Shown: one piece after another, positions 3,844 through 41,821 of the stretch
Layout: every line of letters starts with the position of its first letter
Numbering within the stretch: position 1 is the stretch's first letter
From: a virus
Lineage: Duplodnaviria; Caudoviricetes
Virus record (IMG/VR): IMGVR_UViG_3300025597_000009
Location: 36,587-100,586 of that record
DNA length: 64,000 nucleotides
Strand: one strand, 5' to 3'
Notes under the pieces: model-generated
The model's input: the letters and a program-made list of their open reading frames with translations, nothing else
Databases searched by the model: none
Told to the model about the DNA's origin: nothing
Made by a program: the position numbers and the translations under genes

Positions 3844-4020
3844 TTACATCATGTGGCTACGTTCACGATACAAGATAGTCACAACATGGTTAGCATTATT
3901 ATAAGCTGTGTGTATTTGTTCAATCTGAATTTGAGGGTTTTTGTCTAACCACTCATTTATAGCTCGTTCTGAAGTATAAGCAGAGCTAAGAAATACCTTA
4001 ATTTTCTGAGGTTCATTCAT
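3844..4020 (-). CDS. Small hypothetical protein (58 aa)
   Basis: Manual translation MNEPQKIKVF...; fills gap with ATGA overlap. Confidence 0.5.
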   Translation of the reverse strand: MNEPQKIKVFLSSAYTSERAINEWLDKNPQIQIEQIHTAYNNANHVVTILYRERSHMM

Positions 4021-4733
4021 TTCTTCTTTTCCTTTCTAAATGAAGATTTAACATCAAATCCATGGCTAACAATCTTCTCCTTATCAGTCAATTGTCTTGG
4101 CTGAGGATCTTTGTCAGTGAGTTGCATACTGATAAACTGCTCCAATTCCTGGTAAGCAGTGAAGGGGTCTTTTACAGTAATGAAATCAACACTAGATTTA
4201 TCCAGTTGAGGATTTACTATTAGTAAAGGATCATTTGAAATAGTTGGCCAGCTTACTTTATTAGCTAAAGTTGGATAGGTATATCCCCTGGCAATAGCAA
4301 AAACTGGAACTTTGTACTGTAAGAACAGGTTAACTTGCTCTATTTTAGGTAGAAACTCCTTAAACAGATGGTCTGTTTTCCAACGGAAATACCCAATTTC
4401 ATCTTCATAAACCTTTTTGACTTCTTCCAGGTCATAGGTAGTTACTCTATGTATTTCTTTATCACAAACCAAAGTCCTAGTCCAGTCACATATGTCCAAT
4501 CCTACATGCAGTTGACCAGCAAAGCCAATAATGAAAGGAGCAATGTACATGTTCTCTGATCTACCTCTGAATTGTCTGTATCCAGATGCTCCATGTGTAA
4601 ACTTGTTTAGAAGTGGTAGTTGTTGTGCAGTAATGATGGATGTGTTTCTGTAATACTTTACTGTATCATCTGGTTTACCCAGTGTATACTGTATTGTATC
4701 ATAGTAGTCTCTGAAATCAGAATAAATTTTCAT
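4017..4733 (-). CDS. Conserved hypothetical phage protein
   Basis: 238 aa; DYYD N-terminus and HGFD.K.SFR C-terminus. Confidence 0.7.
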   Translation of the reverse strand: MKIYSDFRDYYDTIQYTLGKPDDTVKYYRNTSIITAQQLPLLNKFTHGASGYRQFRGRSENMYIAPFIIGFAGQLHVGLDICDWTRTLVCDKEIHRVTTYDLEEVKKVYEDEIGYFRWKTDHLFKEFLPKIEQVNLFLQYKVPVFAIARGYTYPTLANKVSWPTISNDPLLIVNPQLDKSSVDFITVKDPFTAYQELEQFISMQLTDKDPQPRQLTDKEKIVSHGFDVKSSFRKEKKK

Positions 4734-5199
4734 AATTATTAGTAGACAGAATTTTGATAATCCTATTACTATAAATATTCCAATCGAGATTGCTTAGCTT
4801 ACTCATCCTATTACCGGCAAAATTGACAATAGCTGGTTTATGCTCTTGGATATAAGCAATGGCTTCTTCTACTGAAGGATTCTCTAAACAAGGCTTTTGA
4901 CATTGCTTACACAACGTAATAGTTTGTTTACTGCCAGGAGAGTTTAAATTACCAAACACAATAGTTAGATCACTATGTTGGATATTTAGCTTAGTTCTAA
5001 TTGGATAAGATGAAGACTCACACTCTACTAAACCATATGTAGTTCTAAGTAGAAAGTTAGGCCCACGCTCTGTCTTAAAATCTTTAGGAGCATACCCACC
5101 TGTAGTATACCCAAGTTGATGAGCTATATTTAAAGCAGCTTCATCAATACCTGTCTGACCTCCAGAGATCACCTTCTGAACAATATCACTAACTTTCAT
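4717..5199 (-). CDS. SLOG-superfamily 'putative molybdenum carrier' protein
   Basis: KVISGGQTGID.AAL...TGG.AP...RT.LNI..SD.T...NFAGNR signature. Confidence 0.85.
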   Translation of the reverse strand: MKVSDIVQKVISGGQTGIDEAALNIAHQLGYTTGGYAPKDFKTERGPNFLLRTTYGLVECESSSYPIRTKLNIQHSDLTIVFGNLNSPGSKQTITLCKQCQKPCLENPSVEEAIAYIQEHKPAIVNFAGNRMSKLSNLDWNIYSNRIIKILSTNNYENLF

Positions 5200-5345
5200 T
5201 GCTTGTTAAGTTTAGAAATACAAAACAAAAAGCCAGCACCTCACTTGATGCTAGCAATAATCAAACTTGGTTATTATCTTTGTTGAGTTATTGGTGAGCG
5301 ACTTTAAGAACTCATATATAGGGCTATGATTGTCAGTGAGTTAGG

Positions 5346-5373
5346 CCGGGGGTTCGAATCCCTCTCTCTCTGC
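5346..5373 (+). other. attP core candidate: 3' fragment of a Bacteroidota tRNA-Ser-like gene
   Basis: CCGGGGGTTCGAATCCCTCTCTCTCTGC = T-arm + acceptor 3' strand with no 5' half upstream; ~160 bp before the integrase. Confidence 0.75.
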
Positions 5374-5385
5374 TGAAGTAACGAT

Positions 5386-5421
5386 AAAACCCTGTAAACT
5401 AACCACTTACAGGGTTTTTTG
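5386..5421 (+). terminator. Intrinsic terminator after the tRNA fragment
   Basis: AAAACCCTGTAA-loop-TTACAGGGTTTTTT. Confidence 0.8.
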
Positions 5422-5529
5422 TTTTTCAAGAGTGCCAAAAACTGAGAATGTTAGTGAACTATCTGTGAGTTAAAAATAAAATCTGTGAGTTACTCACCAG
5501 TGGCATAACTTTTTAACACTCAGTTTCCT

Positions 5530-6735
5530 ATGGTTCCTTTTTCTTACAGTTTCCTGGTGAGGAAATCTCCCAAAGCAGCAGCTGGATTTGCCACTCTGTA
5601 TTTACGCATCCAAGTACAGACACAAAAGATTGAAGTTTCCCTTAAGAGGGATGTGTTACAGCACAGATGGGATATTAAAACCCAACGGCTAAAAGGTAAT
5701 TCTCCAGATAATAAAGAAATTAATAGTTATCTGGACCAAGTAGGTACTACCCTTCATCAGCACTACAAAGAACTAGTGCTAAAAAACAAAGAAATTAGTG
5801 CAACTAGCCTTAAAAAAGCTTTTCTGGGTGAGACTGACAATGAAAAAATGCTGGTCAGTCTGTTCAAAGACCACAATGAGCAAATCCACAAACGGATTGG
5901 AGTAGATTACAAATGGGGTACTTATGAAAGGTATCGGTCTTGTCAGATTCATGTAGAACACTTTCTTAAACTAAAAAAGAAAGTCACAGATATAGCCCTC
6001 AAAGACCTGAATCTTCAATTTGTTACAGACTTTGAGTTATACCTGAAAATTGACAAGAAAAATCAGCACAATACTGCTCATAAGTACTTAATGGTGCTGA
6101 AAAAAGTAATTAGGCTTGCTCTTCTTAATGGTTGGACCAATGTTGATCCTTTTGCCCATTTTAAAATTACTACCAGAGAGGTTAACAGAGATTTCTTAAC
6201 CAAGACTGAACTAGCTACTTTAGAACAGAAAGAAATGCCTAATATCAGGCTAAATCAAGTGAAAGATTGCTTTATCTTCAGTTGTTACACTGGGTTAGCA
6301 TATGCTGATTTGAAGAAGCTCACCTTGAGTCATATTAAAACTGATGATGAGGGTAGGCAGTGGATCATTATTGCCAGAACCAAAACAGAAAGCCAATCAA
6401 AAATCCCCCTTTTGCCTAAAGTTAAAGAGCTGATTAACAAATATGTGCTGGGAAGTAGAAAGGGTTCTGAATATTTATTACCTGTATTGACCAACCAGAA
6501 AATGAACAGCTATTTAAAGGAAATAGCTGACATTTGCAACATCCATAAAAAACTAACTACACACGTAGCTAGGCATACTTTTGCTACTACTGTCACCTTA
6601 ACCAATAATGTTCCCTTGGAAACTGTGAGTAAACTGTTGGGCCACCGGAGTATTCTAATGACCCAACATTATGCTAAGGTGGTAGATGATAAGGTAGCAA
6701 AAGATATGGATGATTTACTAACTAAGCTACAGTAA
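5530..6735 (+). CDS. int: Tyrosine integrase, Bacteroidota type (arm-binding + SAM-like + catalytic domains)
   Basis: LYLRI...SLKR arm domain; CYTGLAYADL, RTKT, HVARHTFAT, LLGH, TQHYA. Confidence 0.95.
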   Translation: MVPFSYSFLVRKSPKAAAGFATLYLRIQVQTQKIEVSLKRDVLQHRWDIKTQRLKGNSPDNKEINSYLDQVGTTLHQHYKELVLKNKEISATSLKKAFLGETDNEKMLVSLFKDHNEQIHKRIGVDYKWGTYERYRSCQIHVEHFLKLKKKVTDIALKDLNLQFVTDFELYLKIDKKNQHNTAHKYLMVLKKVIRLALLNGWTNVDPFAHFKITTREVNRDFLTKTELATLEQKEMPNIRLNQVKDCFIFSCYTGLAYADLKKLTLSHIKTDDEGRQWIIIARTKTESQSKIPLLPKVKELINKYVLGSRKGSEYLLPVLTNQKMNSYLKEIADICNIHKKLTTHVARHTFATTVTLTNNVPLETVSKLLGHRSILMTQHYAKVVDDKVAKDMDDLLTKLQ

Positions 6736-7114
6736 CAGAATCAAAGACTGGAACCTCAAACTGAAATGTACCTGATTCAACTAAAGCCTGGGCTGTGTCT
6801 TTTGTAACATACATATAGACACCAGGAACAGAAACATGGTATACTGTAATTTTAGGTTCCAGCTTTTCTAATTGCTCTGTAACCATACTGGCAATAATCT
6901 TCAATGTTTTTGCCTTATTTTGGGTATTAAGAAGCAATTGCTCTGCATGTTTGACTTTCTCCTCCTGAGCCTCCTGAAAATCTACTACCTGATCTAATAT
7001 AGCATGAGCATTATTTGGCCCCTCCTCCCAAGTTAAAGCATCCATATCAATGGTTACTTCATTGATGATGTATACTCTTGGATTTACTGTCTCAATGTGA
7101 ATTGGTTTTGCCAT
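6722..7114 (-). CDS. Hypothetical protein (likely start MAKPIH)
   Basis: ORF convergent with integrase; upstream extension overlaps a terminator hairpin. Confidence 0.6.
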   Translation of the reverse strand: MAKPIHIETVNPRVYIINEVTIDMDALTWEEGPNNAHAILDQVVDFQEAQEEKVKHAEQLLLNTQNKAKTLKIIASMVTEQLEKLEPKITVYHVSVPGVYMYVTKDTAQALVESGTFQFEVPVFDSVTVA

Positions 7115-7131
7115 AATATATTGGTAGAAAT

Positions 7132-7168
7132 AAAAAGGGCTAGTCAAGTAATTAGCTCAACTAGCCCT
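7132..7168 (-). terminator. Intrinsic terminator
   Basis: AGGGCTAG...CTAGCCCT hairpin with T-run on minus strand. Confidence 0.65.
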
Positions 7169-7193
7169 AAGGTTAAACAATAGATTCTGATTA

Positions 7194-7880
7194 TTATACC
7201 CAAGCGTCTGCTACTGGAATTTCAGTAAGCACTTCTTTATTGTAGGTCCGGTACAATTCATTCAGGAAGGCTGTATAGTCAGCTGTTTTCCGGTTTTTGA
7301 AACCATCATGAATGGTCTTAGTTCCATCAAAACCTTCAACCCACTGGTCTTTAAGAGGAGTGGGTTTAGCTTGAGATTTTGGCAAATCAGCTACACTAGT
7401 AGCCTTTACTAAATCAACAAACCGAAATTTTAATTTTCGGCCAGTATACAACATAATTCTGTTGTTACTTGGACTACTAATAGGTTCAACAATTACATCA
7501 CCTGTCTGACTGTTAATACCTCTTCCTGGCCGCAATTGTTCTTCATATACTTCAATGAGGTCATAGATAAACTCTTCACCCGCATCATTGTAATGACCTA
7601 AGGTATTGATGTCCAGGCCAACTTCTAATTTAATTGCTTCTACAGATTGTTTGGTCATATTTAACCAAACCAATAAACTTTTTGACTCTCTAGTATTGAT
7701 TCTAGGATCACCCTGTCGAATAAAAGCCAAATTGTCAAAGTGCATGCCCTGAGGATTGGCTACTTCTTTTCTGAAACCTACACTGACTTCATTGGGATTG
7801 TTAGAATTTTCCCGAATGTCTGAAATAACTACTACTGGTTTTTTGGCTGTTGCTACTGGGGTTGTGTTTTGAGATTCCAT
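7194..7880 (-). CDS. Hypothetical protein
   Basis: 228 aa ORF. Confidence 0.75.
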   Translation of the reverse strand: MESQNTTPVATAKKPVVVISDIRENSNNPNEVSVGFRKEVANPQGMHFDNLAFIRQGDPRINTRESKSLLVWLNMTKQSVEAIKLEVGLDINTLGHYNDAGEEFIYDLIEVYEEQLRPGRGINSQTGDVIVEPISSPSNNRIMLYTGRKLKFRFVDLVKATSVADLPKSQAKPTPLKDQWVEGFDGTKTIHDGFKNRKTADYTAFLNELYRTYNKEVLTEIPVADAWV

Positions 7881-8016
7881 GATTTTTGGAAATGTTTTTG
7901 TGATTGTTTTTTAATTGTTTTCAAATGCTTAGTTGTCATATAGCTTTAATATATTATAGAAACACTATATGACAAGGAACCCATGCAGTATGGGACAGTA
8001 GAGCTATCGCTAGAAA

Positions 8017-8145
8017 TTATTTGTGTTTAGGACACTTGGTTTGACTGCCCTTAGGAGAATAAGCATCAGCATATCTGGCAGTAACACAGGTTGGTGTACA
8101 AGCAGTACTAAGTAGTAGCACTGACAGGAACAGGAGCATTTTCAT
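8017..8145 (-). CDS. Small putative lipoprotein
   Basis: MKMLLFLSVLLLSTAC lipobox-like N-terminus. Confidence 0.45.
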   Translation of the reverse strand: MKMLLFLSVLLLSTACTPTCVTARYADAYSPKGSQTKCPKHK

Positions 8146-8229
8146 AAAAAAAAATAACCCTGCCAGTAAGTACCAGCAGGGTTGATTGACTTTACTTATA
8201 ACTTTTAAACAGGCCAACTTCAGGCTTTG

Positions 8230-8337
8230 CCCAGGGAAAAGGAATCGAACCTCTATACAAACTGATTCAGTTAATGAAAGCCTATTATTGGCTTTTATAA
8301 AACCTCAGTTTTGCTCTACCAGTTGAGCTATCCCCGG
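8230..8337 (-). ncRNA. tRNA-like RNA with anticodon loop replaced by a ~35-nt structured insertion
   Basis: Acceptor CCGGGGA/TCCCTGG, D arm GCTCAACTGGTAGAGC, T arm AGAGG TTCGATT CCTTT; AAACTGA/TCAGTTT encloses an extra hairpin AAAGCC/GGCTTT. Confidence 0.75.
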
Positions 8338-8354
8338 AACTTATTCTATCTAAT

Positions 8355-8537
8355 TTAATCTACTACAACTTCTTTGTGCTTGGTCTTACGTGTGTACCTA
8401 GGCTTTTTACAAAGAAAACAGCTACAAGGTCTAGTCTGGTGTTTATAACAGTAATAATTACCATCTCTTAGGTTTAACCTCCTCAGTCTTTGGATGTGTT
8501 TTCTCTTGGTTATTTCTGTTCTTAAGCCTTTGTCCAT
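8355..8537 (-). CDS. Small basic protein with PCSCxxC motif
   Basis: 60 aa, K/R rich, PCSCFLC. Confidence 0.6.
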   Translation of the reverse strand: MDKGLRTEITKRKHIQRLRRLNLRDGNYYCYKHQTRPCSCFLCKKPRYTRKTKHKEVVVD

Positions 8538-8691
8538 ATTACTAATTTAGCTAAAAAGGAAAAGAAAACCCACCCTTAAAAAGAATGGGCTTATCTGATA
8601 TATCCACACCATTTAAATAGAGTAACAGCCATAACTATTACCTCTACAATTTTACTATTTAAGGTATAATATATCAAATAAAGATTAAGAT

Positions 8692-8970
8692 TCATTTTAC
8701 AAAAGCATGTTTTTTTACTAATTGAATCGCTTCTTCAAAAGAATAATGCCTACCTCCTAAGTTTAATTTCCTATTAATAGAAGTTTGATTAATAAAAAAC
8801 CACCAATAAACAGGTTTATCTGGATAGTTAAGCAACTCAACCCAATTGAGCCTAATGCAAGGAAGTTGAAGTTTAGTTTTTACCTGAGTTTGATTTAACT
8901 CCATTGTTACAGAGTTAAACCATGTAAATCCTAATGCATACAATTCATCAATAAATTCTTCTTTAGTCAT
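8692..8970 (-). CDS. Paralogous small protein (xLxxLGF family), copy 5
   Basis: MTKEEFIDELYALGF...PCIRL...VYWW. Confidence 0.7.
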   Translation of the reverse strand: MTKEEFIDELYALGFTWFNSVTMELNQTQVKTKLQLPCIRLNWVELLNYPDKPVYWWFFINQTSINRKLNLGGRHYSFEEAIQLVKKHAFVK

Positions 8971-9254
8971 AGCCGTCTTTTAATAAAAGCGTACTTTTTG
9001 ACTAGATTCAGTACCTCCTCATACTTAAGATAATCCCGAAAACTTATGCTATTACCAGCAAAAAAATCATTAGAATATCCCCACCAATATACATGACTAT
9101 CATATACATGAAGCCTAATACAGGGCTGTCTACAGGCACACTTCATATTATTTTCGAGTAATAGTAATGCTGAATTACCAGAGTTATCAGTAAGAAACCC
9201 CTCATTATTAAAACCTAACTCCTTTAATTGAGTTATCAATTCCTGTTTAGTCAT
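8967..9254 (-). CDS. Paralogous small protein, copy 4
   Basis: MTKQELITQLKELGF...PCIRL...VYWW. Confidence 0.7.
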   Translation of the reverse strand: MTKQELITQLKELGFNNEGFLTDNSGNSALLLLENNMKCACRQPCIRLHVYDSHVYWWGYSNDFFAGNSISFRDYLKYEEVLNLVKKYAFIKRRL

Positions 9255-9520
9255 TTGGTATGTGCTGGTTTTAGGATATGTTCCTTTACTACTTCTAAGA
9301 AATCTAGGTAGCTATATGTTTGGCCAGATATATTATTTATAAAAAGATATTGATCAGAAATTGTCATACTCAAATAAATTCTTAGGTCAGTATCCACTAG
9401 AATAGTTGACTTACGGCATTTGAACTTTACATTTTCTGGGTCAAGTCTAAATATATTTAGAGAGCCAGAATTTATAAACCCTAACTTCCTTAACTCCTCA
9501 TATATACTATCGCGTGTCAT
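9251..9520 (-). CDS. Paralogous small protein, copy 3
   Basis: ELRKLGF...VKFKC..TIL...RIYL...NISG. Confidence 0.7.
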   Translation of the reverse strand: MTRDSIYEELRKLGFINSGSLNIFRLDPENVKFKCRKSTILVDTDLRIYLSMTISDQYLFINNISGQTYSYLDFLEVVKEHILKPAHTK

Positions 9521-9795
9521 GATTGTATAGCTAAAGCCTTTTCCAATGCGGCTTTAAGAGTATCTAGCGTATAGACTTTACCCTCAAACTCTCTGTAAGC
9601 ATAGGTATTATCATTAACTACATACGGCCACCAATAGATACAATTAGGAGTCATTAGAGCTACTTCTAATTGGATAGTATGATACAAATTATACTTAACA
9701 AGCTTAGTATAAAGAACATACCTTGTAAGGCTTTGTTTAATAAAACCCAAGCTCTCGAAATATTCTTTAAATTCCTTAGGTATCATGGTTATCAC
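9517..9795 (-). CDS. Paralogous small protein, copy 2
   Basis: FESLGF...IYWW. Confidence 0.65.
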   Translation of the reverse strand: MITMIPKEFKEYFESLGFIKQSLTRYVLYTKLVKYNLYHTIQLEVALMTPNCIYWWPYVVNDNTYAYREFEGKVYTLDTLKAALEKALAIQS

Positions 9796-10061
9796 GTTTT
9801 GATTAGTATGTACTTCTTTACTACCTCTAAAAAACCTGAATAGTCATACCAACTACCAGAAATATTTGTTCTAAACAAATAGCCATCAGACCAATCTGCA
9901 TGTAGGTATATTCTAATTTCTGGAGTGATTAAGATCGTTGTTTTAAGGCATTTGAATTTAACCTTTCTTGGGTTCAGTTTCAATACATCATATTTTTCAG
10001 CAGTAACATGCTGTACAAATCCCAACTTGCTTAGCTCTGCATATAAAGCTTCCTTTGTCAT
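9792..10061 (-). CDS. Paralogous small protein, copy 1
   Basis: ELSKLGF...VKFKC..TIL...RIYL...NISG. Confidence 0.7.
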   Translation of the reverse strand: MTKEALYAELSKLGFVQHVTAEKYDVLKLNPRKVKFKCLKTTILITPEIRIYLHADWSDGYLFRTNISGSWYDYSGFLEVVKKYILIKT

Positions 10062-10345
10062 AACACTTCTTTTACTCTTCCAAAGACTTGCTTAGTCCAG
10101 CCATTGACGTATCCATGATTATTAGCAATTAATAATCCCTTGGTTGGATCAACAGCTTTTACCAAATGAGTAAACAGGTTACCCTTCACTTTGCAAAAAA
10201 CAACATCACCTACTTTGACATCTTTCAATTCTACTGGTTCCAGTATGTGTTTCTGTCCAGATTTGATCAAAGGAGTCATAGAGTTCCCTTTCTCTGAGGT
10301 TTCAAAAGTCTCCCCCTTTGCTAACCGCTCAATCTTATAGTTCAT
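10058..10345 (-). CDS. S24/S26 peptidase-like protein
   Basis: GNSMTPLI...GDVV...H motif. Confidence 0.7.
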   Translation of the reverse strand: MNYKIERLAKGETFETSEKGNSMTPLIKSGQKHILEPVELKDVKVGDVVFCKVKGNLFTHLVKAVDPTKGLLIANNHGYVNGWTKQVFGRVKEVL

Positions 10346-10563
10346 TATTCACATTCAATAATGAATGCAGTTTCCTGCTGACCATCTATGGTTACTCGGT
10401 GAGTTCTAAGTGTCTCAAAATATTGACCTCCTTTAGTTAAAGGGGCAACCACTCCTTGATTATTAAACCACTCTTCACAGTTTTGTTCTCCTTCTCCAGA
10501 AAACCATTGGAGTAATACTTGAGCCTGTCTGTCTGATAGGTTTGTAAAAATTGCAACTGCCAT
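10345..10563 (-). CDS. Hypothetical protein
   Basis: 72 aa ORF. Confidence 0.55.
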   Translation of the reverse strand: MAVAIFTNLSDRQAQVLLQWFSGEGEQNCEEWFNNQGVVAPLTKGGQYFETLRTHRVTIDGQQETAFIIECE

Positions 10564-33737: not shown

Positions 33738-35567
33738 ATGCAGCATGTTACCTTTGAAGAGGTAGCACATAAATACTATAATTTACAAGGGGAAGAGTAT
33801 ATATCAGCTACTTCCTTAGTGTCCCTCTTCAAACAACCGTTTTACCAGGAATACTGGAGTTTATATAAAGCATTACAACGATTTGTAGAAAAGAATCAGA
33901 GTATTTCAGCTTGGCACAAGTTTAAAAAGGAACATAAAGTTCTAGCAATCAAAGAAGAAGTTTACCTCTGGAAGATCATAGATAACCATCTGCCTACCTA
34001 TAGATGGCATATCCAGTTCATTCAGAATCAAATCCTGGAAGAGTGGAATATAGAGAAGAATATAGCCTGTAGTAAAGGCACTATCTTCCACTTGGATAGA
34101 GAAAAGGAGGCTTATGAAAAAGGAGAACAGCGGTATGGTGATACAGATATCATCCAGAAAACAGCTACCTCCTATTCACTAAGCCTAGACAACCTTGTGG
34201 ATGGATATCATCCTGAACTCTTGTTATACAACCATAAATACAAAATAGCTGGTCAGGCTGACAGAGTTTGGATAACCACAGAGAATTCTGTTAGATATGT
34301 AGATTTAGACGATTGGAAAGGGTTTTCATTAGATACTCCAATTCCTACAAAAAATGGATATAAACTAATGAAAGACATTATGATAGGTGATCTCATTTTT
34401 GATGGTAATGGTGAGTTAACTAAAGTAGCTCATGTGTCTCAAATACATTATAATCCGTGCTATAAGATTACATTTGATACAAATGAACAATTGATTTGTG
34501 ATCATGAGCATAAATGGGAAATAGTAAAAAAGCACAAAGGCTCTAAAAAAGCAATTGAAGTTGAGTTAACAACTGAAGAGCTTTATAATGAGCATACTAA
34601 GAAAGATTCGATTCTTAGTATACCTTGTATAGCACTTACTTTAACTCAAACTAATCTACCTATTGACCCTTATGTATTAGGTGTTTGGTTAGCCGATGGT
34701 AACCGGACTGTTAATACTATTACTAACACGACTAGGGGTGTGTGGGAAGAAATTAAAAAGAGAGGATATAAAATAAGTGAAAACTTAAACAGGATAACAG
34801 GTAGAGCCGAAAGCAGAACTATTTATGGAATAAGAAAGCATCTGGTGTCTTTAAATTTACTAAGTAACAAGCATATACCTGAAAGCTATCTCAGAGCTTC
34901 TCATGAGCAACGATTAGATTTGTTAAGAGGTCTTATGGATGGTGACGGGTATTTACACAGAAAAAGAAAAAGATGCTCATTACAGACAACCAAAAAATGG
35001 CAAGCAGATTCTCTATTTCAACTAGTTACTTCTTTAGGGTTTAAGGCTACTATTTTTATAAGTCATTCAGGTACAGGCTTTGGTAAAACCAATATCACAG
35101 TCTATGATGTTTGTTTTACTCCAACAGAAAATCCTTTTCTTTCTAGAAATCAGGATTACTTTGATGTAATTAAACAACCTGGTAAATACTCAAAAGCTAG
35201 GTACATTAAAAGTATTGAGGTAGTTGCTACGGTACCAACTAAGTGTATTGGGGTTGAAAGTAATACGCATACTTACTTGGCTGGTTATGGTGGAATCAAA
35301 ACACACAATACCAATAAGAAGATCAAAACTGACAATAGCTATGATAACATGAAGTACCCGGTAGAACATCTACCTGATTGCAATTACAACCATTACAGAT
35401 TACAGCTTTCCCTTTATGCCTGGATGCTAGAACAACAGGGCTATGTAGTTCGTAATCTGCAATTTACCCACTGTATCGATTTACAGACCAGAGTGCCTTA
35501 CAAGTTTACATATTTAAAAGAAGAAGTAGAAGCGTTAATCTATCACTACACATGGGAGCAGTTTTAG
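33738..35567 (+). CDS. PD-(D/E)xK (Cas4-like) exonuclease with intein
   Basis: GTIFH, E...AGQAD...DWK|TNK, YRLQLSLYA. Confidence 0.88.
   Translation: MQHVTFEEVAHKYYNLQGEEYISATSLVSLFKQPFYQEYWSLYKALQRFVEKNQSISAWHKFKKEHKVLAIKEEVYLWKIIDNHLPTYRWHIQFIQNQILEEWNIEKNIACSKGTIFHLDREKEAYEKGEQRYGDTDIIQKTATSYSLSLDNLVDGYHPELLLYNHKYKIAGQADRVWITTENSVRYVDLDDWKGFSLDTPIPTKNGYKLMKDIMIGDLIFDGNGELTKVAHVSQIHYNPCYKITFDTNEQLICDHEHKWEIVKKHKGSKKAIEVELTTEELYNEHTKKDSILSIPCIALTLTQTNLPIDPYVLGVWLADGNRTVNTITNTTRGVWEEIKKRGYKISENLNRITGRAESRTIYGIRKHLVSLNLLSNKHIPESYLRASHEQRLDLLRGLMDGDGYLHRKRKRCSLQTTKKWQADSLFQLVTSLGFKATIFISHSGTGFGKTNITVYDVCFTPTENPFLSRNQDYFDVIKQPGKYSKARYIKSIEVVATVPTKCIGVESNTHTYLAGYGGIKTHNTNKKIKTDNSYDNMKYPVEHLPDCNYNHYRLQLSLYAWMLEQQGYVVRNLQFTHCIDLQTRVPYKFTYLKEEVEALIYHYTWEQF
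34320..35309 (+). mobile_element. Intein with LAGLIDADG domain (class-3-like, Gly1)
   Basis: GFSLDT...DHEHKW...LGVWLADG...GLMDGDG...KCIGV...THN|T. Confidence 0.88.
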
Positions 35568-37624: not shown

Positions 37625-40600
37625 ATGTTTAATACCACTAGTAAAGAATTATATAGCAATTTAAAACCAAATGAAATACCTCCCAGAGACCATCCTGACC
37701 GGCCAGCTTTTGTGCAGTGGGAGAAAGACAAATCCCTCAATGGGGTAACCATTAATGGTCAGTTTATTCCAGGTGGTTTTTATTATCACTTTAATCATCA
37801 TGCCATTGCCAGGGATGTCCTGGATCATACAGGCAGGAATCACCGGATCATTGGCAAACCCCTGGTCAGGGATAATGACTGGCTTATCTTTTCAGAGTAT
37901 GATAAAGCAGCCTTAGCCAGAGAGGTATTCTGCATGGGTGGGGCCAGACAGTTAGGTAAAGACTTACTAAACACATCCAAACTTTACACTGAAACAGGTG
38001 AAATAGAAATTGGCAGTGCTCAGGTTGGTCAGCAGATTTATGGAGCTGATGGTAAGTTAACCACTATAACTGGAGTGTATCCACAAGGAATCAAACCAGT
38101 ATATGAAGTAAGCTTAGCAGATGGTAGAAAAGTATATTGTGGCTTAGACCATAACTGGTATGTTTGGAATTATAGGAAGTTTAACGGGTATAAAGAACAT
38201 TCTAAAAAGAATGGTACAAACACATTAGGTGGTTATGAAATAAAAACAACCAGACAGTTATTAGAAGGCTATAGAAAGGAACGTATACACACTACAGGTA
38301 GAAACAATTCTTATGAATCCAGGTATGCAATTCCTGTTTGTCAACCAGTACAGTATCCTGAAAAAGAGTTATTAATTGACCCTTATATTTTTGGATTATG
38401 GCTTGGAGATGGAGATAAAATAAGAGGAGGATTAACTACACTTGATCCAGAAATACAAGAAGCTTGGTGTGATTATGCTATTCAACTTGGCCTTAAATGT
38501 CATGTATATGATGTTGCTAAATCTGACCAGGATTTAAAGCATATTCTTATCTCTAGTTATACAGGTTGTCAGGGATGTAACACATTTCAAGAAAGATTAA
38601 AAGAATTAAATGTCCTGAGTAATAAGCACATTCCAGCCATATATTTAAGAGCTTCAGAGTCTCAAAGACTTGAATTACTTAAAGGGTTAATGGATACAGA
38701 TGGTAGCTGTAGTAAAAATGGCTCTATTGAGTTCAATACAGTTATACCTGAATTAGCTGATAATGTTGAAGTACTTTGTAGAAGCTTGGGAATCTCTGTT
38801 AGACGGACAACTAAACAGGGGAGTTATAAAGACTCAGAAGGCAACAAAGTAATTTGCAAGCTAGTACACAGAATAAGACTATATACAACTAAACAGGTAT
38901 TTAAACTACAAAGAAAGTTAAATAACATAGGTTTAAGTAGTAAAAGAGACTATGAGTTTAGATCAAGTATTGTAGGTATAAACTATGTGTATGATGCTGA
39001 AACTACTTGCATTACAGTTGATAATGAAGATCATTTATTCCTGACAGATGGGTTTACTGTAACGCATAACTCTGAGGCCTTGTGCAGCATGGTGGCCAGG
39101 GAGGTGCAGCTGATTCAAAATACAGAAGCCCTCTTACTGTTCACTTCTCAGCCTGATAAGGAAACGTTTGCCAAGAAGATGGAGATAGCTGTCACCCATT
39201 GTACAGAGTTCTTCAGAATGCCTAGAATTGATAAGGACTGGAGAAAGACCGATATCCGATTTGGCTTTACTCAGAAAGATAATACCTCTTTTGTGTTCAG
39301 TCGACTGTTTATGTATCTGACTCAAGGGGGTAATGAAACAGAAGTTGGTGCCGGTAAAACAGTTACTTTTTTTGCCTATGATGAGATTGCAAAAGCACTT
39401 AGACATGGTTCTAGTATATATTATGAAGATCGTATAGGCAAAATTGAAGAAGTTAAAGTTGGAGACAGGATTTATGGTAAAGATGGAAAATTAACAACTG
39501 TAATAGGTGTATACCCACAGGGCAAAAAACAGTTGTATAGGTTCACATTTAGAGATGGTAGAACTGTAGACTGTTGTGGAGAGCATTTATGGCATGTGTA
39601 TGATGATGGCCAAAAAAAATGGAGAACAGTAAATACAACTTATTTGCTGAAATACTATAAAGGACATCAAAAAGATAAGCGTACTGGTAAGACTCAAACT
39701 AAATGTAGATTTCAAATACCTCATAACGAACCAGTAACTTATCCTGAAAAAGAATTACCAATTGACCCTTACTATCTAGGTGTCTGGCTTGGAGATGGCC
39801 ACTCTCATGCTTGTGGTGCAATTACAGGTATTGACCAGGAAATCAAAGATTTTGTTGCTGATTATGGTAATAAGTTGGGTCTTTTTTATAGTGAACTTGG
39901 AGAAAAAGATTTTAAGATCAGTACAGGATGCTCTGGTAAAGTCTCAGAACTTGCTAAAGTTTTTAAAAAGTATAACCTATTATACAATAAGCATATACCA
40001 TCTGATTACTTATATAGTTCTTTTGATCAACGACTTGCACTCTTACAAGGGTTAATGGATACAGATGGAACTTGTTATAAAACAGGTATTATAGAATTTA
40101 GTAATACTAATGCTTTCCTAATAAAGCAAGTAGAACAATTAGCAAGAAGTTTAGGTATTGCTTTAAAAACAAGTAAACATAAAGGGAGCTATAAAACAAC
40201 TGAAGGTGTAGAAGTTATTTGCAAAGACTCTTATAAAGTTAGAATGTTTACCTCTTTGCCTATTTTTAGACTAGAAAGAAAACTAGCTAACTACAATACT
40301 AATAAAAAAACTAGAGGTAGGGCTTTTGAAACTAAAACAGCTATTGTTGATATACAAGCAATTGGAGAAGATTATGCTACCTGTATTAGAGTAGACAATG
40401 AGAACCATTTATTCTTAACTAATGATTTTTTAGTTACACATAACTCAGATTTTCTAGAAGCTTATGAAGCAGTAGTACCTGCTATCCGTTCTCAGTTTGG
40501 ATTCAGGTGCTCCCCTTTTATGTGTTTCACTGGAGGTAATGTAGATAAATCAGCTGATGCTGAGAAGTTCTGGCTTTCCCCTACTGCTAATAACATCAGA

Positions 40601-41821
40601 CCTTACCAGACTGATAATCGACCAACTGGTTTCTTTATGGGAGGTTGGTACCGGCAGGATTTCAAGAAGCCCATGCGGTTTTCTGATTACCTGGGGCTAA
40701 CGACTCCTTCTGAACTGGATGATCTGGAAATTCTGGTAACTGATTTTGATCTGGCCAATAAAACACTGGATGAGGAATTAGATCAGGCCAGACAAGGGAA
40801 AGACCCCGGTCCTTCTGTGGCCAAGAAAAGAATGTATGATCCCCGCTCTATTGAAGACATGTTTCTTAGGGCTGGAGGCAATCCATTTTCACAATGGAGG
40901 GATGAACTTAAACGGCATCAAACCATGCTGTTGGACACAAAACCAGGCATTGCTGGCAAGCTAGTAAAAGTGAATGGAATTGTAGAGTTCCAGCCAGTAG
41001 CCAAGATACCTATTACCCGGTTTCCAGCAGAAGTGTATGATGATCTGGATGCTCCCATTGTAATTTATGATTTGCCCAGAAAAGAACATAAGAATGCATT
41101 CTATTTACACATAGGAGGCTTTGACCCTTACAATACAGCTAAGACAGATACTTCCAGTTCACTGGGAGCTTTTTATCTGATTAGAAGAATGTATTCAACT
41201 GAGGATGCCTATCAAGATACGATGGTAGCTTCTTATGTAGGTCGACCAGACAGACTACAGACTTACCTGGATAACATCATTATGTTGCTGGAATTTTATG
41301 ATGCTACTATGCTTCATGAGGCCAGTAATGATCTGGTGCTAAATCACTTTGATTTGAAAGGAAAGGCCCATCTAATTGCTGATACACTTTCTCTACAAAG
41401 AGAAATAAATCCTCAGACCAGAAGCAAAGTAGTTAAAGGATTACCTCCTACCCCTAAGAATCAGAATTATTGGATTGGATGCATTCAGGAGTACTTGGGA
41501 GATATAGTAGATTATGAGATCAATCAGTATGGAGAATCAGTTCCAATTTATGGCTATACTAGAATTCTTGATCCTCTGCTTTTAGAGGAATTAATGCAAT
41601 TCAATATAGATGGAAACTTTGATAGGATTGTAGCATTTGGCCATGCTTTAGCCTATAACAAATCATTAGGAAAATACCACATCCCTCAATTGAGAGAGAA
41701 TTATGATCCTAATCAGAAAAAGGAAGAAGTAAAACGGAAAAATCCTTGGAGTATGTTTAATAGCACTACAAATAATTTACAAACTAAAAAATCACCTTTT
41801 GTATTTTCAAAACATGGATAA
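37625..41821 (+). CDS. terL: Terminase large subunit with two inteins (mature ~678 aa)
   Basis: Walker A ARQLGK|S, Walker B FAYDE, FTGG motif, nuclease GGFDPY and NFDRIVA. Confidence 0.93.
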   Translation: MFNTTSKELYSNLKPNEIPPRDHPDRPAFVQWEKDKSLNGVTINGQFIPGGFYYHFNHHAIARDVLDHTGRNHRIIGKPLVRDNDWLIFSEYDKAALAREVFCMGGARQLGKDLLNTSKLYTETGEIEIGSAQVGQQIYGADGKLTTITGVYPQGIKPVYEVSLADGRKVYCGLDHNWYVWNYRKFNGYKEHSKKNGTNTLGGYEIKTTRQLLEGYRKERIHTTGRNNSYESRYAIPVCQPVQYPEKELLIDPYIFGLWLGDGDKIRGGLTTLDPEIQEAWCDYAIQLGLKCHVYDVAKSDQDLKHILISSYTGCQGCNTFQERLKELNVLSNKHIPAIYLRASESQRLELLKGLMDTDGSCSKNGSIEFNTVIPELADNVEVLCRSLGISVRRTTKQGSYKDSEGNKVICKLVHRIRLYTTKQVFKLQRKLNNIGLSSKRDYEFRSSIVGINYVYDAETTCITVDNEDHLFLTDGFTVTHNSEALCSMVAREVQLIQNTEALLLFTSQPDKETFAKKMEIAVTHCTEFFRMPRIDKDWRKTDIRFGFTQKDNTSFVFSRLFMYLTQGGNETEVGAGKTVTFFAYDEIAKALRHGSSIYYEDRIGKIEEVKVGDRIYGKDGKLTTVIGVYPQGKKQLYRFTFRDGRTVDCCGEHLWHVYDDGQKKWRTVNTTYLLKYYKGHQKDKRTGKTQTKCRFQIPHNEPVTYPEKELPIDPYYLGVWLGDGHSHACGAITGIDQEIKDFVADYGNKLGLFYSELGEKDFKISTGCSGKVSELAKVFKKYNLLYNKHIPSDYLYSSFDQRLALLQGLMDTDGTCYKTGIIEFSNTNAFLIKQVEQLARSLGIALKTSKHKGSYKTTEGVEVICKDSYKVRMFTSLPIFRLERKLANYNTNKKTRGRAFETKTAIVDIQAIGEDYATCIRVDNENHLFLTNDFLVTHNSDFLEAYEAVVPAIRSQFGFRCSPFMCFTGGNVDKSADAEKFWLSPTANNIRPYQTDNRPTGFFMGGWYRQDFKKPMRFSDYLGLTTPSELDDLEILVTDFDLANKTLDEELDQARQGKDPGPSVAKKRMYDPRSIEDMFLRAGGNPFSQWRDELKRHQTMLLDTKPGIAGKLVKVNGIVEFQPVAKIPITRFPAEVYDDLDAPIVIYDLPRKEHKNAFYLHIGGFDPYNTAKTDTSSSLGAFYLIRRMYSTEDAYQDTMVASYVGRPDRLQTYLDNIIMLLEFYDATMLHEASNDLVLNHFDLKGKAHLIADTLSLQREINPQTRSKVVKGLPPTPKNQNYWIGCIQEYLGDIVDYEINQYGESVPIYGYTRILDPLLLEELMQFNIDGNFDRIVAFGHALAYNKSLGKYHIPQLRENYDPNQKKEEVKRKNPWSMFNSTTNNLQTKKSPFVFSKHG
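37961..39070 (+). mobile_element. TerL intein 1 (LAGLIDADG, class-3-like, Asp1) in Walker A
   Basis: GK|DLLNTS...DHNW...GLWLGDG...GLMDTDG...TCITV...THN|S. Confidence 0.9.
39395..40444 (+). mobile_element. TerL intein 2 (LAGLIDADG, class-3-like, Ala1) after Walker B
   Basis: DEIAK|ALRHG...EHLW...GVWLGDG...GLMDTDG...TCIRV...THN|S. Confidence 0.9.

Follow-up and report, generated by a model that had tools for sequence, protein, structure and literature searches.

A putative attP-integrase module with the 3' end of tRNA-Ser(UGA) in a phage related to the crAss-like phages

Can phages with a crAss-type capsid protein enter the chromosome of their host at a tRNA gene? The question is raised by a 64,000-nucleotide stretch of viral DNA (Duplodnaviria; Caudoviricetes), termed the window in the following, which covers bases 36587-100586 of the 100,586-bp IMG/VR record IMGVR_UViG_3300025597_000009, a record without terminal repeat. 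Positions 5200-6735 of the window contain a fragment of a serine tRNA gene followed by a gene for a tyrosine integrase (int). Cultured crAss-like phages have been described as incapable of lysogeny (PMC8375218) and zeta phages have been treated as lytic (PMC12386605). For epsilon crAss-like phages a repressor and anti-repressors as well as two incomplete Parabacteroides prophages have been reported, and a search for an integrase failed (PMC11054128). For mouse Intestiviridae and zeta genomes an enrichment of integrase annotations has been reported, with attachment (att) sites left unanalysed (PMC13503771).

In our assessment, window positions 5200-6735 are with high likelihood the phage attachment site (attP) and integrase module of a temperate phage that integrates into tRNA-Ser(UGA), the phage being seen here in free, i.e., replicative or packaged, form. 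This assessment builds on the anatomy of the sequence, its exact identity with the tRNA, the intact catalytic set of the integrase and the prophages of relatives that carry int in the same slot. As its two nearest relatives are inserted in tRNA genes of Spirosoma-type bacteria, classical prophage formation is very probable for this lineage.

The tRNA-Ser fragment, its surroundings and the integrase

The intergenic region 5200-5529 holds the core, repeats, a plus-strand terminator and a minus-strand terminator. Together with int, its features are as follows.

5232-5255, minus strand: terminator in the P arm, 9-bp stem with 5 GC pairs, then a T run
5283-5343, plus strand: P arm with arm-type repeat candidates, TTGAGTTA at 5283-5290 and GTCAGTGAGTTA at 5332-5343
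5346-5373, plus strand: presumed crossover core, 3' end of tRNA-Ser(UGA), with exact matches in genomes
5386-5425, plus strand: intrinsic terminator, 12-bp stem (5386-5397/5407-5418) plus T run
5461-5497, plus strand: P' arm with direct ATCTGTGAGTTA at 5461 and 5481 and inverted GTGAGTAA at 5490-5497
5530-6735, plus strand: tyrosine integrase of the IntCTnDOT type, 401 amino acids (aa), three Pfam domains and catalytic set

The core consists of the last 27 bases of tRNA-Ser(UGA) plus one base, i.e., two bases of the variable region, the T arm, the 3' strand of the acceptor stem, the discriminator G and one base beyond, and is identical at 28 of 28 positions. Exact copies of the 25-mer 5348-5372 occur at at least 120 genome loci. 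Among the matches listed, all but a few represent the end of a complete tRNA-Ser with anticodon UGA, and in nearly all of them identity extends over window positions 5346-5373. These matches stem from the Cytophagales (Dyadobacter, Spirosoma, Runella, Emticicia, Lacihabitans, Leadbetterella, Rufibacter, Adhaeribacter and Algoriphagus) as well as from Chitinophagales, Sphingobacteriales and Ignavibacteria. A whole tRNA was not called at 5346-5373 by ARAGORN, which identifies this stretch as a 3' fragment; the fragment and its coordinates had been given exactly right in a first-pass annotation, made by a model from the letters alone. In five of the loci listed, from Lacihabitans sp. CS3-21, Runella zeae, Algoriphagus boseongensis and two metagenome-assembled genomes (MAGs), identity continues for four more bases up to position 5377, at most a weak hint at the host. 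The core reads towards int, as does the full tRNA in integrated homologous elements, so that insertion would leave a rebuilt, intact tRNA-Ser. An origin of the fragment from a tmRNA, to which a weak tmRNA/T-arm match in Rfam (15.8 bits) had pointed, was rejected on the basis of the acceptor strand and the full-gene matches, both of which indicate tRNA-Ser.

The first-pass annotation had also noticed a terminator after the fragment and GTGAGTTA-like repeats on both sides of the core, and both hold. The 12-bp stem of the plus-strand terminator folds with -17.1 kcal/mol (z -4.2), and none of 200 shuffled sequences folds as well. The 64-kb window contains four exact GTGAGTTA copies, three of them within 157 bp, and when up to one mismatch is allowed five sites lie in 5283-5497 (215 bp), compared to a background of about one per kb. 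After integration, the minus-strand terminator would presumably shield the neighbouring cpYpsA gene and replication genes from host read-through.

The open reading frame (ORF) for the integrase is the sole plus-strand gene amid minus-strand neighbours, confirming an earlier description as a lone plus-strand tyrosine integrase. Arm-DNA-bind_5 (PF17293, 49.1 bits), Phage_int_SAM_5 (PF13102, 65.6 bits) and Phage_integrase (PF00589, 62.9 bits), all scoring above the Pfam cut-offs, constitute the trio of domains characteristic of Bacteroidota integrases, and the best database homologues are 51-52% identical. An alignment with 16 homologues places A257 (in TGLAY) at the position of Arg-I, with R283 and K285 (ARTKT), H345 and R348 (HVARH), H372 and Y381 all present; in PDB searches, XerA/XerD align across the HxxR and GH..Y motifs. 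Alanine at Arg-I also occurs in two IMG/VR homologues and in all eight of the 42-45% identical homologues adjacent to tRNA-Ser that are described below; being common to the closest homologues examined, it characterises the clade and does not indicate damage. The replacement of the first catalytic arginine had been recognized from the sequence as IntDOT-like, which fits both the clade alignment and the literature: the IntCTnDOT subgroup conserves the first arginine weakly and often lacks Arg I (PMC8138268), and a downstream arginine substitutes for it in IntDOT (Kim et al. 2010, cited in PMC8138268). R283 is a candidate counterpart of this substitute arginine, the comparison being based on the published description.

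The members of the IntCTnDOT subgroup, i.e., IntDOT of CTnDOT and IntN1/IntN2 of NBU1/NBU2 (PMC8138268), share with the window integrase the same arm-binding, core-binding and catalytic build. An unconserved Arg I, a downstream arginine in R-x-K-T and the presence of the K/H/R/H/Y residues are likewise common to both, as are the origin from Bacteroidota and repeats around the core, which in the window are putatively of the arm type. Unlike the conjugative or mobilisable elements of this subgroup, the window integrase resides on a phage of about 100-149 kb. CTnDOT tolerates core heterology; unlike CTnDOT, the window module appears to target a tRNA 3' end with an identical core of 28 bp.

The genes that surround the region are the following.

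3-1385: DNA polymerase, left flank
4717-5199, minus strand: cpYpsA SLOG family gene (Pfam PF12694, E 6.6e-28), the last gene before the P arm
6722-7147, minus strand: phage gene of the right flank, convergent with int, with a 32% identical homologue inside a prophage of Spirosoma oryzae
7194-7880: further phage gene of the right flank, with a homologue in one or more related prophages

The product of 6722-7147 has no family match. Phage genes are thus present on both flanks, polymerase and cpYpsA on one side and the genes at 6722-7147 and 7194-7880 on the other, an arrangement that corresponds to attP and not to the left or right junction of a prophage (attL, attR), exactly as the first-pass annotation had it.

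The module resembles the classical POP'-type modules of the lambda kind in that the 3' end of a tRNA is part of attP, arms are present on both sides and int is adjacent. Classical modules of this type directed at tRNA genes are those of P4, P22 and mycobacteriophage L5. Differences concern the lineage of the integrase, which is of the Bacteroidota IntCTnDOT type, the tRNA terminator brought along by the module itself, the second, insulating terminator, and excisionase (Xis) and repressor, neither of which was recognised. The design of the module is classical; it is the crAss-related temperate lineage that is new.

The integrase would act as a heterobivalent protein that binds the GTGAGTTA-type candidate arm sites via its N-terminal arm-binding domain and brings about recombination between the 28-bp core and the identical 3' end in the tRNA-Ser(UGA) gene of the host. 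One junction would then consist of the rebuilt tRNA-Ser, composed of the host 5' part and the phage 3' part, followed by the phage terminator and int, with the plus-strand terminator ending the tRNA-Ser transcript ahead of int. At the other junction, the displaced host 3' end would come to lie beside the end of the phage genome that carries cpYpsA and the replication genes. We infer that the integrase is active and that tRNA-Ser(UGA) is its target.

Integrated relatives and the integrase family

A search of 401 Cytophagales genomes with the portal protein identified contig C9 of genome G192 (53% identity, E 3e-300). This genome belongs to Spirosoma oryzae DSM 28354, as shown by a tRNA-Ser contig identical to NZ_PVTE01000011.1. 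On C9, 32 window-phage ORFs have matches in phage order between 108 kb and the end of the contig at 229 kb (~120 kb). Bacterial genes, for a PAS-domain histidine kinase and a MacB/FtsX permease, lie to the left of the junction, which is formed by the 53-nt 3' part of a tRNA-Arg(UCU) at 108,030-108,082, the rest of the gene being absent; an integrase with the same three domains is encoded at 108,245-109,468. On contig C19, a second copy of the 53-mer (98% identical) resides inside an intact tRNA-Arg(UCU), and to the left of this core copy homologues of the phage polymerase (46%) and of cpYpsA (43%) are found, the cpYpsA homologue being located 4 kb from attR.

A second search, comprising 401 Spirosomataceae genomes, led to contig C33 of genome G695, where 37 window-phage ORFs have matches between 421 and 540 kb (capsid 62%, portal 53%). 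Perfect direct repeats of 82 bp at 414,985-415,066 and 559,440-559,521, each containing a whole tRNA-Arg(ACG), bound a prophage of 144.4 kb (C33 415,067-559,439), the int gene of which is situated 134 nt inside the right repeat. Genes for rpoN, NAPRTase and enoyl-CoA hydratase (ECH) lie outside the left repeat. The stretch directly beyond the right repeat (G695:C33:559,634-567,865), with a guanine-plus-cytosine (GC) content of 41%, probably represents a further island at this tRNA-Arg; besides a D12 methyltransferase and an Mrr-type endonuclease it encodes a second integrase (31% identical to that of the window).

As far as the sequences compared here indicate, the prophages of S. oryzae and G695 are the two nearest relatives of the window phage, with 53% identity in the portal, 52-62% in the capsid and 32-37 shared ORFs in the same order. 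As in the window, their integrase genes occupy the same slot beside an att site derived from a tRNA. In contrast to the free window phage, both prophages are integrated, at tRNA-Arg(UCU) with a repeat of 53 bp in S. oryzae and at tRNA-Arg(ACG) with an 82-bp repeat over the whole tRNA in G695, and their GC content amounts to 50-51% as compared to 36.5% in the window phage. The genes that flank att in the window are found at opposite ends of both prophages, as expected if the window represents the attP form. Absence of the cassette from close relatives, which had been raised in the first-pass annotation as an argument against integration, was not observed, as the two nearest relatives carry an integrase in this very slot.

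The window integrase is only 24% identical to that of the S. oryzae prophage and 22% identical to that of the G695 prophage, which share 37% with each other, but it is 42-45% identical to chromosomal integrases located by tRNA-Ser in Dyadobacter and Pontibacter. Conservation of the slot combined with these identities implies that the int-att cassette has been exchanged, and the cassette appears to be an exchangeable module at a fixed genome position, by the exchange of which integration specificity would change. The idea of a captured int-att cassette, also put forward earlier, is partly true insofar as the module was evidently swapped.

An integrase homologue is located beside tRNA-Ser at 19 of the 120 loci listed. 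Eight of these 19 homologues share 42-45% identity with the window integrase and are encoded just downstream of tRNA-Ser on the same strand; one stems from Pontibacter pamirensis, the others from seven Dyadobacter species. The seven Dyadobacter loci exhibit the order seen in the window, i.e., the tRNA end, about 25 nt, a terminator hairpin, a CCAAAA-like stretch, repeats and int, and two loci (L016 and L030) feature two direct and one inverted repeat of a motif of their own, GTGAGC. In Dyadobacter diqingensis, a 24-nt repeat of this tRNA end marks the far boundary of the element at a distance of 114 kb, and GTGAGC-type motifs occur on both sides of the core, including the P arm; in D. luteus, a second, 23-nt copy of the tRNA end is present on another contig. 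Within their 8-kb stretches, the tRNA-Ser/integrase loci contain no phage genes, and other than int these elements have no ORF in common with the window phage.

The D. diqingensis element (G742:C1:566-114,935, L202-L207) extends over about 114 kb from tRNA-Ser(UGA) and integrase to the 24-nt repeat, and apart from int none of its ORFs is common to the window phage. After its distal repeat, a similar terminator is again present. An interpretation of this terminator as a native host terminator was discarded, as a tandem second element is possible and explains it equally well. At three further loci, in Rufibacter sediminis (L017), an Ignavibacteria MAG (L028) and a Flavobacteriaceae MAG (L081), tRNA-Ser 3' ends occur without the rest of the gene; these copies probably represent junctions or att scars left by other elements.

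In metagenomes of the Joint Genome Institute (JGI), a tRNA on the same strand was found within 600 nt upstream of 46 of the 62 homologues (37-47% identity) for which enough upstream DNA was available. These tRNAs are specific for Asp (18 loci), Leu (15), Ser (8), Val (3), Arg (1) and Lys (1), so that the layout is a property of the family whereas the target varies.

Weighing the evidence for a temperate phage

A number of observations weigh against a temperate phage directed at tRNA-Ser(UGA). The record is a fragment, classified as linear in IMG/VR and as 43% complete by CheckV. An exact-pattern scan of metagenome contigs for the core and P' arm returned 0 hits and with them no attL, attR or bacterial attachment site (attB) junction, and IMG/VR scans with integrase, portal and polymerase gave nothing closer than 42-43% identity. 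Neither a repressor nor an excisionase was recognised, and the 100-kb record contains no match to the helix-turn-helix (HTH) family HTH_3 (PF01381), in line with the earlier remark that the window lacks a recognisable repressor. More distant relatives yielded no match to PF00589; this applies to Lbo-JY46 and phi17:2 as well as to a 64-kb fragment and an IMG/VR genome of 131.7 kb that is complete, with terminal repeats. Moreover, the 37-47% identical homologues adjoin different tRNAs (Asp, Leu, Ser, Val), so that the target of the window integrase is deduced from the core and not from the enzyme. The search for integrated junctions, suggested in the first-pass annotation, thus resolved junctions for the relatives only. 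Its proposal of a temperate phage at a host tRNA-Ser stands as regards the exact core, the attP layout and the integrated relatives; a junction of this phage itself is the part that was not found.

The unrecognised repressor and excisionase, the lack of an integrated copy of the window phage, the more distant relatives without integrase and the foreign lineage of the cassette would also suit a module that is an unused relic of recombination with an integrative element, the phage being effectively lytic. We regard this as improbable, since the ORF is of full length and lacks none of the catalytic residues of its subgroup. Not one base of the 28-bp core has changed, intact arm repeats are present on either side, and the closest relatives are genuine prophages that carry int in this slot. 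Another view is that the cassette is a separate small integrative element, such as a hitch-hiking island, that inserted into the phage and travels with it as a vehicle, rather than its lysogeny module. Bacteroidota commonly harbour small islands at tRNA-Ser, either integrase-only or with cargo, and both the tRNA-Ser/integrase loci devoid of phage genes in their 8-kb stretches and the 114-kb element of D. diqingensis, which shares only the int ORF with the window phage, could be cited in its favour. The core, however, is present in a single copy with no flanking direct repeat, from which it follows that the cassette is not itself inserted. It contains only att and int, about 1.5 kb, and in both prophage relatives integrases of other lineages occupy the same slot, with the whole phage located between the att repeats. 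Such an island is therefore very improbable.

That the tRNA-like stretch is a decayed phage tRNA or a chance match, with a role of the integrase in, e.g., dimer resolution, is hardly credible. Five tRNAs are indeed encoded elsewhere by the window phage, and the Rfam match of 15.8 bits points to a tmRNA or T arm only weakly, but 28 of 28 bases agree with the end of a host-type tRNA-Ser(UGA) with an orientation and a spacing to int that are seen across the family, and the integrase possesses an arm-binding domain, unlike Xer-type resolvases. An attP-integrase module of a temperate phage accordingly remains the reading that we prefer.

Position of the phage, its host and further genes

The capsid protein matches Pfam family Crass_capsid (PF23898) with 60.6 bits at a cut-off of 27, and tblastn searches with it matched Lbo-JY46, Lightbulbvirus and FpV4-type phages and no Crassvirales record at E<=1e-5. 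The portal protein is 40% identical to that of Lbo-JY46, 29.5% to that of crAssE-Sib, 26.5% to that of Lightbulbvirus and about 23% to those of Crassvirales (E about 1e-20). A megablast search of positions 4000-9000 against GenBank phages yielded no match. Phylogenetic analysis was performed for the portal as the one marker, with 19 rows and midpoint rooting, Crassvirales being represented by the two families Steigviridae and Suoliviridae. In the tree, the two prophages group with the window phage in a single clade, and Lbo-JY46 and two IMG/VR genomes are placed beside it. This side of the tree joins epsilon crAssE-Sib (PMC11054128) and Lightbulbvirus (phi17:2/phi4:1) with 99% support in the SH-like approximate likelihood ratio test (SH-aLRT), apart from Steigviridae and Suoliviridae. 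Unlike the window phage, Lbo-JY46 and phi17:2 revealed no integrase on search.

The tree thus suggests a crAss-related phage outside the Crassvirales families as sampled. A Crass_capsid capsid, a homologous portal (23%) and the order large terminase subunit (TerL), portal, capsid are shared with Crassvirales, and the label Crassvirales-like, used in the first-pass annotation, is appropriate for the capsid. The portal tree assigns the phage to a neighbouring clade outside the sampled families, the very outcome that had been named there as a refutation, which weakens the taxonomic framing.

A crAss-capsid lineage is thereby provided with a complete and readable integration module, and its nearest relatives are prophages with both junctions resolved. 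One of them resides in a type strain from a culture collection, which makes lysogeny in the wider group directly testable. We tentatively consider it possible that the window phage and the Spirosoma prophages, potentially together with the epsilon crAss-like phages, form a deep lysogenic branch of the phages with crAss-type capsids in which int-att is swappable at a fixed slot. If so, phages of ~145 kb would retarget between tRNA-Ser(UGA), tRNA-Arg(UCU) and tRNA-Arg(ACG) by swapping the cassette, and S. oryzae DSM 28354 would be a culturable natural lysogen for studying the induction of a crAss-type phage.

An identical integrase is encoded on three contigs, the longest of which measures 149,225 bp. 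In view of this contig and of the 144 kb of the prophage relative, the record is probably incomplete and comprises about two thirds of the genome. The host is presumably a Cytophagales-type or related FCB-group bacterium and not a gut Bacteroides, and the GC content of the phage (36.5%) points to a host with a lower GC content than Spirosoma. A cyanobacterial host, at which Leptolyngbya phage Lbo-JY46 as best phage hit and an antisense plastid trnS-like Rfam hit might hint, was rejected because the core matches listed stem almost all from Bacteroidota and Ignavibacteria and because the relatives are prophages of Spirosomataceae. Among 401 Spirosomataceae genomes no relative closer than the S. 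oryzae and G695 prophages was present, a portal search across the phylum, in a sample of 401 Bacteroidota genomes, gave none at E<=1e-30, and a portal relative was not found in five Spirosomataceae genomes of low GC content.

The small ORFs near the integrase have no PHROG or Pfam match. A stand-alone S24 peptidase-like protein of 95 aa with a GNSM motif is encoded at 10058-10345 on the minus strand (22.3 bits, cut-off 23.3) and may represent a LexA/CI-type cleavage module without recognisable HTH. Its gene is translationally coupled to an unmatched ORF of 72 aa at 10345-10563. At 8692-10061 (minus strand), five abutting genes for proteins of ~90 aa are mutual paralogues (27-50% identity) with no family match, and in the S. 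oryzae prophage a long run of ORFs of 90-100 aa directly follows the integrase.

The G695 prophage contains giant virion-type ORFs of 3581, 1993, 1683, 1580 and 1518 aa, located in the portion of the prophage for which the record has no counterpart; those of 3581, 1993, 1683 and 1580 aa gave no match to an RNA-polymerase PHROG. Portals 27-29% identical to that of the window are encoded in further Cytophagales assemblies (G263:C254, G263:C208 and G159:C171:50105-52777), and the G263 contigs branch beside the Crassvirales clade in the portal tree. In the window, a 609-aa ATPase/exonuclease-like protein encoded upstream of the terminase (33738-35567, plus strand) carries a LAGLIDADG domain. The large terminase itself (37625-41821, plus strand, 1398 aa) contains two inserts of the homing-endonuclease/intein type, Hom_end around residues 350-419 and Hint plus LAGLIDADG_3 around residues 604-868, which explain its double TerL-ATPase matches.

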